A DNA stretch of 49,792 nucleotides from an uncultured archaeon (GTDB taxonomy: Archaea > Aenigmatarchaeota > Aenigmatarchaeia > QMZP01), in contig CAZSLL010000006.1 in the NCBI GenBank assembly GCA_964607835.1, positions 20,003 through 69,794 of the forward strand. The letters are read 5' to 3'. Each line of letters starts with the position of its first letter. Positions within the stretch are counted from its first letter, which is position 1. Positions 31,490-34,577 of the stretch are shown here, piece by piece. A model generated the notes under the pieces. The model saw only the letters and a program-made list of their open reading frames with translations, ran no database searches and was not told the DNA's origin. The position numbers were made by a program, and so were the translations under genes.

Positions 31490-32728
<1,239 letters not shown>

Positions 32729-32792
32729 GCTATCTCACGCTCCATTATACGATTAAGTTTATATATGCTTAATTGACTAAAAGTGTCTAGAT

Positions 32793-32994
32793 GGGCCCAT
32801 AGCTCAGTCTGGTTAGAGCACTCGGCTCTTAACCCTGTTTTGTGGAGCAATTCAGGGAAAGAAACCGAGGTGTCGGGGGTTCGAAACACGCTTTTTTCAA
32901 GAAAAGGCGTGGGCCAAAAGGAGCATCGCTCCGCCAAAGGCTCCGCTCGCTTCCGTTTGAACGGGAGCTGGCGTCGGCAATCCCCCTGGGCCCT
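32793..32994 (+). tRNA. tRNA-Lys(CTT) with two introns: 37/38 (32832-32863) and 59/60 (32886-32980)
   Basis: Cloverleaf assembled by hand: acceptor GGGCCCA/TGGGCCC, D-stem GCTC/GAGC, anticodon stem CTCGG/CCGAG, T-stem GGGGG/CCCCC, T-loop TTCGAA|T. TATA-like TTTATATA upstream. Confidence 0.85.
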
Positions 32995-33034
32995 TATCCC
33001 ATTCTTCCGGTGACGTTTCTAGCAGAAGCGGTTA

Positions 33035-33123
33035 CTGTCCCTTCACGACCCAATGCAATTGATGAAGGCCGTGCAATAATGCTGTCCCTTCACGACCCTA
33101 TAGTATTGATGAAGGCCGCGCAA
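33035..33123. repeat. Tandem 47-bp-period repeat (2 copies) with CCTTCA/TGAAGG hairpin
   Basis: CTGTCCCTTCACGACCC-n6-ATTGATGAAGGCCGYGCAA at 33035 and 33082. Confidence 0.9.
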
Positions 33124-33145
33124 CAGAGCCCTCGTAAGAAAGATT

Positions 33146-33294
33146 AAAAGGCAGCTATCTGGGCTTCCCCCTCGAAAGGAGTACCACCCAGACCGTGGGA
33201 GGGCTTGACTTCCGTGTTCGAATTTCCCCACCCCGCGCATCCGCGCGGAAACGGCGTATGGGAACGGGTAGACACCTCCACTTTGGCCGCCATT
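33146..33294 (-). rRNA. rrf: 5S rRNA with 35-nt insertion/intron (33223-33257) in loop C
   Basis: Minus strand reads GGCGGCCAAAG...ACCCGTTCCCAT[35 nt]TTCGAACACGGAAGTCAAGCC...GGTA...GAA...GCTGCC. Helix I GGCGGC/GCTGCC, TTATAAAA box ~25 nt upstream. Ends approximate. Confidence 0.9.
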
Positions 33295-33349
33295 GTCATT
33301 CTAATGTAAAGAGGGTTTTATAAGCTTTGCGCTAACCGGGTGAAAAAAG

Positions 33350-33535
33350 CGCCCAGGCCGGGATCTTCAGAACCGTTTTGTATGCGGTAGCGTTCTTTCC
33401 GCGAACGCTTTTGGGCGTTTACCGGTCCAAAAGGGTTCATTTGAACCCGGGTCATGGGAGTGACAGTCCCATATGCTAGGCCGATGTGCACCACCTTCCC
33501 CTTTTCAGGGAAAGCAGGTACTACACTACCTGGGC
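33350..33535 (-). tRNA. tRNA-Asp(GTC) with two introns: D-loop 15/16 (33484-33520) and T-loop 59/60 (33364-33439)
   Basis: Acceptor GCCCAGG/CCTGGGC plus discriminator G, anticodon arm TGGGA-CTGTCAC-TCCCA, T-stem CCGGG/CCCGG. Perfect BHB at the T-loop. Oligo-T follows the 3' end. Confidence 0.92.
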
Positions 33536-33656
33536 ATTTATATGAAAACCTGACCATGTCAGGGTCAACGGCTGAATTTATTAGATTCGCTTAGTATTTA
33601 AATAGGTTTCATACAGTGAAGCCTTTTTATACCCTTCATGCATATCCTTTCTAGAT

Positions 33657-33814
33657 GGGCCCGTAGCTCAGTCTGGTTAGAGCACCGGGCTTTTAACCAT
33701 GTGCGTTAAAAGCGTCGAGGTTCCCGTGGGACCTGTGAGAAGATACCCGGGTGTCGCCGGTTCAAATGCATTCCTGGACGCGTTCCAGGAGGCTTGGGTT
33801 TCCGGCCGGGCTCA
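33657..33814 (+). tRNA. tRNA-Lys(TTT) with two introns: 37/38 (33696-33744) and 59/60 (33767-33800)
   Basis: Acceptor GGGCCCG/CGGGCTC (one G-U), anticodon stem CCGGG/CCCGG, T-stem GCCGG/CCGGC. BHB central helices CTTT/GAAG and TTCA/TGGG. TTTTTATA box upstream. Confidence 0.88.
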
Positions 33815-34577
33815 TTACCCTTTCAATAACAGTACTCGAAAAACAAAATCCAATATGATTCCACAAAAATGACTTTAGTATATTTTTAGGATTGCTGAAA
33901 CCTATATCTGAACACCATTTTTCGTATCCCTTTGCGCCTGGTATGAAGAGTTGGTGGCTCACAAAAGGCTTCTTTGTTTTAGGGTGGATATTCTGCAAGT
34001 CAAGATAAACATTCGGATGAAACCTCAATTCTTCCAGCAATTCTTTTGAGTCCAGTAGTAGATTCTTGCTCGCTGTAGCAAACTTAATCACAGGGTAATA
34101 GTATTTCCTGTTTCCTCTGCTCTTGAAGCAAAATGAGAAATCTGTGTCACCAAGACCTCTCAAAAAATATGCTTTTTTGCTATATGCAGCATCCTTGATT
34201 ATGTCAGGTATTCCGATTTCTTTTTTGGGTCCAATTGGCAGACCGCAGATTTTGTGATAATAATTAACGAGGCCCTTGGAATATGCCCTCAGATAGCAAA
34301 CATGTATCGGAGGTCTGAGATAAAATCCGAAATTCAACCCGAATAAGCTGTATTTTAGATTCCTTACATGGTCTTTAAGATAATGATAATCAGATATCAG
34401 ATTTCCAGTAACTCCTATTTGATAATCTGTTGCATGAGGCTTTTTATCTATGCCTATGTTTCCATCGCCTGTCATTATGCCAATGTCTTCAGCAAGGTAA
34501 TTTGATATTTTATCAGGAAATCTCAGTCCTCTTGACATGTCTTTTTTGCTGGTTTCGATTGTCGAAAAATCCAACAT
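33762..34577 (-). mobile_element. Free-standing double-motif LAGLIDADG homing endonuclease gene
   Basis: Two LAGLIDADG-like helices (LAEDIGIMTGDG and YFLRGLGDTDFS). AT-rich. No intein splicing motifs seen. Confidence 0.85.

Follow-up and report, generated by a model that had tools for sequence, protein, structure and literature searches.

The window analyzed here is a stretch of 49,792 nucleotides from an uncultured archaeon of the Aenigmatarchaeota (DPANN), corresponding to positions 20,003-69,794 (forward strand) of contig CAZSLL010000006.1 in assembly GCA_964607835.1. This assembly, designated G000, comprises 1.18 Mb in 48 contigs and is 90% complete. Coordinates without a contig prefix are positions in the window, those beginning with G000:C refer to contigs of the same assembly, and the other G numbers designate genomes of relatives. 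Our subject is a cluster at 32793-33814 that consists of three transfer RNA (tRNA) genes, for Lys(CTT), Asp(GTC) and Lys(TTT), and a 5S ribosomal RNA (rRNA) gene. Together, these four stable-RNA genes carry seven inserts, which account for 358 of the 1022 bases (Table 1). An initial annotation had read the inserts as seven introns in about 1 kb, two in each tRNA gene and one in the 5S gene, and the analysis described below upholds that count and layout.

Table 1. Genes, inserts and putative promoter elements of the stable-RNA cluster, in window positions
Feature	Position	Strand	Remarks
TATA-like box (putative)	32758..32765	+	about 30 bases upstream of tRNA-Lys(CTT); read from sequence
tRNA-Lys(CTT)	32793..32994	+	exons 32793-32831, 32864-32885 and 32981-32994; 75 bases when joined
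37/38 intron of tRNA-Lys(CTT), 32 bases	32832..32863	+	ARAGORN -i call after removal of the T-loop intron
59/60 T-loop intron of tRNA-Lys(CTT), 95 bases	32886..32980	+	family B cassette; placed by bulge-helix-bulge register
5S rRNA	33146..33294	-	exons 33258-33294 and 33146-33222; 114 bases when joined; Rfam RF00001, 52.8 bits
Loop C insert of 5S rRNA, 35 bases	33223..33257	-	read as a relaxed (hBH-type) bulge-helix-bulge intron
tRNA-Asp(GTC)	33350..33535	-	exons 33521-33535, 33440-33483 and 33350-33363; 73 bases when joined
59/60 T-loop intron of tRNA-Asp, 76 bases	33364..33439	-	family A cassette; full hBHBh' motif; model R1, 82.4 bits
15/16 D-loop intron of tRNA-Asp, 37 bases	33484..33520	-	alternative register 33485-33519, 35 bases, at 16/17
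TATA-like box (putative)	33624..33631	+	about 29 bases upstream of tRNA-Lys(TTT); read from sequence
tRNA-Lys(TTT)	33657..33814	+	exons 33657-33695, 33745-33766 and 33801-33814; 75 bases when joined
37/38 intron of tRNA-Lys(TTT), 49 bases	33696..33744	+	ARAGORN -i call after removal of the T-loop intron
59/60 T-loop intron of tRNA-Lys(TTT), 34 bases	33767..33800	+	central helix 4/4; unique in the genome

As had been anticipated in the initial annotation, standard searches miss the tRNA genes of the cluster. ARAGORN reported no tRNA in the whole 49,792-base window and still none when anticodon-loop introns were allowed, while lowering its threshold produced eight calls, none of which was a true gene. 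At gathering scores, the Rfam models recognized only the 5S rRNA in the window, with an unaligned insert; the tRNA model reached 20.3 and 19.6 bits on the two tRNA-Lys genes (cut-off, 29) and gave no match to tRNA-Asp at E <= 10. In the whole genome, six tRNA matches are found above the Rfam cut-off and 11 at E <= 1. In the minimum-energy folds of the three tRNA precursors, the acceptor, D, anticodon and T stems are all visible, with long hairpin-rich inserts between them. When the inserts were removed by their coordinates in a script and ARAGORN was run again, it recognized all three genes, as Lys(ctt), Asp(gtc) and Lys(ttt), each with a perfect cloverleaf.

These genes appear to be the only copies in the assembly. 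When the mature tRNA sequences predicted in silico were used as BLAST queries on the genome, Lys(CTT), Lys(TTT) and Asp(GTC) did not turn up again in intron-less form, their anticodon arms being present only at these loci, and the sole Rfam match to 5S rRNA in the 90%-complete assembly is the interrupted gene. Intron-less functional copies elsewhere, envisaged in the initial annotation as grounds for dismissing the genes, were thus found neither by BLAST nor by Rfam. It might nevertheless be argued that the interrupted genes are decaying pseudogenes or duplicates, with the working copies elsewhere or in the unassembled 10%, as the assembly is in 48 contigs and stable-RNA genes often assemble poorly. 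We consider this very improbable, because, besides the failure to find any of the four genes a second time, removal of the introns leaves exons that are perfectly intact and that are conserved across genera while the introns vary. Additionally, the splicing enzymes are intact, and 31 of the 33 tRNA genes that could be modelled in this genome are interrupted (see below), so that nearly the whole tRNA set would need to consist of pseudogenes. Even less credible is an origin of the inserts as assembly artefacts or chimeras of the metagenome bin. Although the source is metagenome-assembled and an assembler might in principle be misled by the repeated cassettes described below, the exons left by every insert are exact and functional, and homologous interrupted loci occur in many independent assemblies. 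Moreover, a separately assembled contig from a public DNA run, possibly of the source sample, reproduces 32958-33412, 5S insert included, with no differences. Judged from their sequence, the four genes are most probably functional, single-copy genes interrupted by seven protein-spliced bulge-helix-bulge introns.

The geometry of the junctions is central to this reading. All three tRNA genes have an intron in the T-loop, between positions 59 and 60, and the sizes (95, 76 and 34 bases) and sites first proposed for these introns were confirmed, as was their shared organization, with a TTCR central helix and bulges of the forms AA/N and NN/T (the slash marks the exon-intron boundary). At these sites, the T-stem is the outer helix, and bases 54-57 of the T-loop form the central helix with a stretch of four intron bases that ends two bases short of the 3′ splice site (4/4 pairs in Asp and Lys(TTT), 3/4 in Lys(CTT)). 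The 5′ bulge, made up of bases 58-59 and the first intron base, is AA/T in Asp and Lys(TTT) and AA/A in Lys(CTT), and the 3′ bulge, made up of the last two intron bases and T60, is GA/T in Asp, TT/T in Lys(TTT) and AA/T in Lys(CTT). As 59/60 and the canonical intron site, 37/38, both separate the sixth base from the seventh in a loop of 7 bases closed by a 5-pair stem, the two sites are equivalent, and the 59/60 geometry is the canonical 37/38 intron geometry moved to the T-arm.

Across the seven introns, the central helix has 4/4 pairs in five and 3/4 in two. The 59/60 intron of tRNA-Asp presents the full hBHBh' motif (central helix 4/4, inner helix 5, outer helix 5); that of Lys(CTT) is relaxed, with no adjoining inner helix, and folds as a three-hairpin junction. 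At 37/38, the central helix has 3/4 pairs in Lys(CTT), with inner and outer helices of 5, and 4/4 in Lys(TTT), with an outer helix of 5. The sequences of both 37/38 introns, as well as that of the 59/60 intron of Lys(TTT), are unique in the genome. In Lys(CTT) and Asp, the 59/60 cut may be shifted by one base without changing the product, and only the bulge-helix-bulge register fixes it at 59/60. Two registers are also available to the D-loop intron of tRNA-Asp, both with 4/4 pairs in the central helix. The intron was first read as 35 bases at 16/17, but the D-loops of its orthologues favour 37 bases at 15/16, a cut that leaves the same 9-base D-loop that is present in the orthologues of G006, G019, G012 and G029. 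None of the seven introns has an Rfam match. A test for box C/D guides found the C box (RUGAUGA) in 0/7 introns and a lone CUGA in two, and the group I intron model gave no Rfam match at gathering score, either for the window or for the 16S and 23S rRNA loci, and none at E <= 10 in 32700-33900.

Interruption at 59/60 is widespread among the tRNA genes of this genome. ARAGORN run on brute-force single-intron removals was too permissive for a census, as it returned odd “tRNAs” of up to 96 bases, and it was replaced by a script of our own that combines a 7-pair acceptor stem with a T-arm, which may be whole or interrupted after position 59, accepts up to two further motif introns and scores the resulting cloverleaf. 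At a score of at least 15.5, 35 loci were obtained in the genome vs. none in the reversed genome and, at a score of at least 15, 39 vs. one. Two rows were dropped as artefacts (C29:1344-1947, and C15:15024-15721, which overlaps a His gene), and a chimeric row formed by two adjacent Val genes (C17:766-1041) was re-read as Val(GAC) with one intron. Among the 33 confidently modelled tRNA genes, at least one intron is present in 31 and three introns in six, adding up to 63 introns, and the genome-wide count of 59/60 introns that the initial annotation had called for gives 24 genes; all these counts are lower bounds, because they come from a home-made script with strict requirements.

The motif at the T-loop was evaluated in 32 introns, comprising 24 from the census and eight from lower-scoring loci picked by eye, mostly of the Leu/Ser type, which the model fits poorly. 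The central helix has 4/4 pairs in 19 of them, 3/4 in nine and fewer in four, a distribution that is slightly inflated by the requirement of at least 2/4 central pairs for the selection of candidates. In the control, where the 3′ site was slid by 4-12 bases, 4/4 pairs appeared in 12 of 576 trials.

The T-loop introns of the cluster had been described initially as unrelated in sequence. Although they are indeed unrelated to one another, those of tRNA-Asp and tRNA-Lys(CTT) belong to multi-copy families. The first ~58 bases of the Asp intron recur at no fewer than 14 places in the genome, almost all of them directly after the T-loop of another tRNA. A covariance model of this family (family A), called R1 and built from 14 copies, identifies 21 copies in the genome. 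Within the order, R1 matches were found in 46 of 91 genomes, the copy number ranging from 0 to 31 per genome, and, in a phylum-wide sample, in 27 of 151 genomes, all from the same class. Family A occupies 59/60 in at least 16 tRNAs of different anticodon and, additionally, 37/38 in Ala(GGC). Regarding family B, BLAST located the first 38 bases of the Lys(CTT) intron at four further places in the genome, a pattern search yielded nine copies in all, and BLAST matches to its 5′ part were obtained in a dozen relatives or more. Besides the copies at 59/60, there is one at 37/38 in each family (in family B, it is in a CAT-anticodon tRNA) and, consequently, the same cassette fills both equivalent loop sites. 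In both families, closely similar introns are shared by tRNAs that differ in identity and occupy more than one position, the pattern that defines transposed tRNA-intron families of the Thermoproteales type.

The structure of family A shows signs of conservation. In 50 copies from about 30 genomes, 93.4% of the cells in the hairpin are paired and changes on both sides are seen in 10 of its 17 pairs; the covariation score is 0.282 vs. <= 0.057 when the partners are slid, in an alignment that was fitted to the model and leans, for that reason, towards structure.

Several other features of family A are worth recording. The 5′ end of the cassette (33364-33439, minus strand, and family A generally) is complementary to three sequences (the 5′ strand of the host T-arm, a segment in the interior of the cassette and the cassette's 3′ end), so that several alternative pairings compete. 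Its 3′ end resembles the T-loop sequence at the point of insertion, a resemblance that may be a trace of the insertion mechanism. Finally, two weaker R1 matches in tandem (40.2 and 40.9 bits) are found at G000:C5:10581-10709 (minus strand), just outside a modelled tRNA-Cys (C5:10711-10901); they may be part of another interrupted gene or free-standing copies.

With respect to the spread of the cassettes, it is quite possible, if short of probable, that they are primarily mobile elements at the DNA level, comparable to miniature transposons and with the DNA of 7-base hairpin loops as their target, which are tolerated only because they can be spliced and whose conserved structure serves their own spread rather than the host. 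Such an origin would fit their patchy copy number across the order and the near-identical copies that unrelated tRNAs carry, at 37/38 as well as at 59/60, and the precedent in Thermoproteales has been interpreted as DNA-level transposition (Fujishima 2010, as summarized in PMC4090602). The compensatory changes in the hairpin point instead to selection on RNA structure, although a DNA hairpin could be under such selection too, and the short cassettes encode neither a transposase nor a homing endonuclease. In any case, a DNA-level origin concerns only how the introns spread and not what they are.

This reading may be compared with the state of the same genes in relatives. Across genera, the exons of the orthologues are almost unchanged, whereas the introns differ in presence, length and sequence. 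The tRNA-Asp gene beside the 5S gene, for instance, has no intron in G012 and G029 (both also called by Rfam, at ~60 bits), one in G008 and G035, two in G001, G006, G024 and G032, as in G000, and three in G019. In the two intron-less orthologues, the exon junctions are exactly as predicted for the genes of the window. Similarly, orthologues of tRNA-Lys(CTT) with the same exons are found in G001, G002, G004, G012 and G015; the one in G012 has the T-loop intron only, and the other four have a 37/38 intron together with a T-loop intron of 76-241 bases. The comparison of orthologues indicates ongoing intron gain and loss. The clustering of Lys, Asp and 5S genes, which had been taken for an old archaeal arrangement, was followed within the order, where the 5S and Asp genes are neighbours in nine of the 12 loci examined in relatives, with varying gene order and strand. 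In the window, the 5S-Asp pair is inverted with respect to the co-oriented Lys-5S-Asp order of G012.

The insert of the 5S gene lies in loop C, where the Rfam alignment showed an unaligned stretch of 37 bases, and its motif has a central helix of 4/4, an inner helix of 4 and an outer helix of 0. When 15 5S genes of the order were aligned, 10 of them were 114 bases long, the same length as the joined exons of the window gene, and the 35-base insert was exactly absent from G002, which belongs to the same genus, and from nine other genomes. Inserts of 41-60 bases with similar ends occupy the same site in G004, G008 and G019. By contrast, G001, also of the same genus, has a different insert of 20 bases, six bases downstream, that presents the full hBHBh' motif (scores 4, 6, 4). 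All five insert-bearing 5S genes examined have a 4/4 central helix and 3-base bulges exactly at the junctions. Of the 71 5S matches in the order, 15 have lengths of 134-182 bases; the other 56 measure 87-120 bases, mostly 112-116. The cassette model R1 matches 5S inserts weakly (14.7 bits, E = 0.012, in G019; E = 0.35 in G004), which is at most a hint that the 5S inserts and the tRNA cassettes share an origin.

The insert might also stay in the mature RNA as a loop C expansion segment, as in some Clostridia and in Halococcus morrhuae, whose 5S rRNA reportedly carries an insert. Retained inserts have been described in prokaryotic 5S rRNAs, and loop C positions 34-37 are named among the least obstructed sites of the ribosome (Stepanov and Fox 2021, PMC7812874); moreover, the absence of an outer helix makes the motif of the window insert relaxed, and no RNA run was found for the stretch. 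We rate retention as improbable, however, because the junction motif is exact in all five insert-bearing genes, including that of G001 with its full motif at another site, because the inserts come and go inside one genus, and because the same cell must cut such motifs from nearly all of its tRNAs, so that the motif exposed in the pre-5S rRNA should be cut too. The weak R1 match of the G019 insert goes in the same direction, although the G004 insert does not match the model. In fact, PMC7812874 itself allows that inserts of this kind that have not been tested may be excised. The expansion segments treated there are similar to the inserts of this order in being extra sequence within the 5S gene, loop C included. 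They differ in that, where tested, they are retained in the mature RNA, with no bulge-helix-bulge junctions described for them, while here the motif and the splicing load of the cell would argue for excision.

If spliced, as the preferred reading supposes, the 5S inserts would be the first true 5S rRNA introns. Judging by the titles of the papers listed, no 5S rRNA intron was described in the literature that we searched, nor was there in it any report tying 5S rRNA introns to Micrarchaeota, and the term “5S rRNA” is absent from the report on 16S introns by Jay and Inskeep 2015 (PMC4496867).

The other rRNA genes of this archaeon are heavily interrupted as well. Its 16S gene (G000:C15:11357-14504, locus L118:1501-4648, minus strand) covers 3148 bases, vs. 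1478 positions in the model and 1489 bases in the intron-less gene of the relative G025, and contains at least seven inserts of ~32 to ~740 bases. The 16S matches of relatives abut exactly across several of these inserts, and Rfam shows inserts of 35, 39 and 32 bases within the first 700 model positions. As the MAFFT placement of the large inserts is unreliable, the motif was judged on the small ones only, two of which have clear bulge-helix-bulge motifs as placed (38 bases, with scores 4, 7, 0, and 75 bases, with scores 4, 9, 8). Matches to 23S rRNA are distributed in several pieces over G000:C11:2847-13260 (loci L119 and L120), that is, ~10.4 kb for a model of 2987 positions, which implies several kb of inserts. 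The initial annotation had suggested a burst of intron gain reaching beyond tRNA. The reach is confirmed and extended, since 5S, 16S and 23S rRNA are all interrupted, and the load may have arisen in a single burst or by continuing turnover.

Some additional features surround the genes of the cluster. A TATA-like box of its own precedes each of the four by 25-30 bases, and a T-rich stretch follows each (33295-33350 on the minus strand; 32757-32792 and 33620-33656 on the plus strand), and the two tRNA-Lys genes share the 10 bases immediately 5′ of the mature end. A tandem element of ~47 bases, in two copies (33040-33073 and 33087-33120, plus strand), lies between tRNA-Lys(CTT) and the 5S gene. 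The two halves of this element can pair in two mutually exclusive ways, and a third copy is located inside the 205-base T-loop intron of a CAT-anticodon tRNA (G000:C3:21352-21385). There are three full copies in the genome, with no Rfam match, no convincing C/D boxes by eye and no BLAST match in relatives. Directly upstream of tRNA-Lys(CTT), an open frame of 412 amino acids (31490-32728, minus strand) resembles, by eye, a translation GTPase of the aIF2-gamma/EF-1alpha kind.

The enzymes needed for protein-dependent splicing are encoded in the genome. There is one match to the catalytic domain of the tRNA-intron endonuclease, in an open frame of 398 amino acids (EndA), where Pfam recognizes the catalytic domain and, weakly, the N-terminal domain. 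Residues 10-398 of this protein align to residues 12-387 of PDB 4fz2, the epsilon2 EndA of ARMAN-2 (phmmer E = 1.6e-99), and the residues aligned to Y236, H251, K282 and the loop lysine K161 are Y, H, K and K, all conserved (the first three form the catalytic triad, and broad specificity is attributed to K161 in the specific loop; the numbering is from PMC6379350). The architecture of EndA, one of the points that the initial annotation had proposed to check, is of the epsilon2 type by this end-to-end alignment, epsilon2 enzymes being single chains of about 390 amino acids made of three units (alphaN, alpha and betaC). The nearest relatives of the protein, with 55-81% identity, are mostly labelled Candidatus Aenigmatarchaeota, and those of Micrarchaeota share 38-44% (named genome records). 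The RtcB ligase is also present, in one full-length copy (518 bits) with no stops. According to Kaneta et al. 2018 (PMC5829648), epsilon2 EndA was known by then only from ARMAN-1/2 and Mancarchaeum, and no paper on the splicing endonuclease of Aenigmatarchaeota was found in the literature searched.

On these grounds, the following model may be proposed. Each gene would be transcribed from its own promoter, and the exon-intron junctions of the precursor would each fold into a strict or relaxed bulge-helix-bulge. A single epsilon2 homodimeric endonuclease would then cut both bulges, as judged by analogy with ARMAN-2, after which RtcB would ligate the exons and probably circularize the intron. 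At 59/60, the T-arm would mimic the anticodon arm that bears the canonical intron, with the T-stem acting as the outer helix and bases 54-57 (TTCR) contributing the central helix. The intron load would have built up as a few structured cassettes spread and turned over, moving between such loops of stable-RNA genes, a movement that is itself conjectural.

Several points weigh against this interpretation and have to be taken into account. Some of the motifs are relaxed, such as that at 59/60 in Lys(CTT), with 3/4 central pairs and no inner helix, and that of the 5S rRNA, with no outer helix, and the cleavage of relaxed substrates by this enzyme is assumed by analogy with the work on ARMAN-2. In the genome as a whole, an adjoining inner helix of at least three pairs accompanies only 9 of the 32 T-loop introns. 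The census is limited to genes with T8, a GTTCRA-like T-loop and perfect stems, and it may have misplaced some of the introns; the effects of candidate selection on the T-loop distribution and of model fitting on the covariation score, mentioned above, operate in favour of the motif and the structure, respectively. As the genome is 90% complete, an intron-less copy could lie in the unassembled part. Additionally, none of the public runs holding the stretch is on record as RNA; consequently, we infer splicing, with both its cleavage and its ligation, as well as the size of the mature 5S rRNA, the circular form of the excised introns and whatever function the cassettes may have.

A broader proposal may be formulated from the model, although we regard it as unlikely. 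In this proposal, one or two families of small, mobile, structured introns would have colonized tRNA, 5S, 16S and 23S genes across the class by recognizing a single shape of RNA, namely a 7-base hairpin loop with its gap between the sixth and the seventh base, or a site equivalent to it. Among 5S rRNAs, the inserts would be the first genuine introns, and the excised cassettes, with their covarying hairpin and invariant loops, would be stable, probably circular, functional RNAs that might, for instance, aid in the folding or processing of precursors or protect tRNA genes from integrating elements.

Part of what is described here belongs to a known kind. The initial annotation had pointed to Thermoproteales as the best-known precedent, and it is correct that multi-intron tRNAs with non-canonical positions have been described before; the closest precedent, however, is ARMAN-2 (Candidatus Micrarchaeum acidiphilum), which has an epsilon2 EndA, 59/60 introns and 56% of its tRNA genes disrupted (Fujishima et al. 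2011, PMC3239211). The 59/60 cases given there are pre-tRNA-Cys, of the hBH type, and pre-tRNA-Pro, with introns at 53/54 and 59/60. The similarities include a DPANN host, a three-unit endonuclease of the homodimer type, introns at 59/60, many relaxed motifs and tRNAs that are missed by standard finders. By contrast, the proportion of interrupted genes reaches 31 of the 33 modelled in our genome, 59/60 is the main site (24 of 33), conserved cassettes are present in multiple copies, the 5S gene is interrupted, and the lineage is another one.

As for Thermoproteales, their transposed tRNA-intron families (Fujishima 2010, as summarized in PMC4090602) likewise imply intron gain by transposition. 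These archaea belong to a different phylum and have an (alpha-beta)2 endonuclease, as opposed to the epsilon2 enzyme here, and, unlike the families described in that summary, the cassettes found in this work have a covarying hairpin, are concentrated at 59/60 and recur across a class. Short (<50 nt), hairpin-forming bulge-helix-bulge introns have also been reported in the 16S rRNA of Thermoproteales (Jay and Inskeep 2015, PMC4496867). The inserts studied here resemble them in being small and non-coding and in sharing the junction motif, which is processed there by the tRNA splicing endonuclease, but they differ in that the 5S rRNA of a DPANN lineage is interrupted beside its 16S and 23S rRNA. 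In summary, non-canonical multi-intron tRNAs and endonucleases of broad specificity were already known, including the 59/60 introns of ARMAN-2, whereas the lineage, the density of introns, the dominance of the 59/60 site, occupied by conserved structured cassettes, and the extension to 5S rRNA are new.

These observations extend the epsilon2 endonuclease to a second DPANN phylum, in which it is tied to a heavier substrate load than in ARMAN-2. From a practical point of view, standard pipelines would report most of the tRNAs of this archaeon as missing, given that the Rfam cut-off is reached by only six of them and that ARAGORN returns none for the window, and inferences on completeness and auxotrophy in Aenigmatarchaeota consequently need intron-aware searches. 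Finally, the combination of cassettes at two equivalent loop sites with clean presence or absence in close relatives provides a tractable system for the spread of protein-spliced introns.

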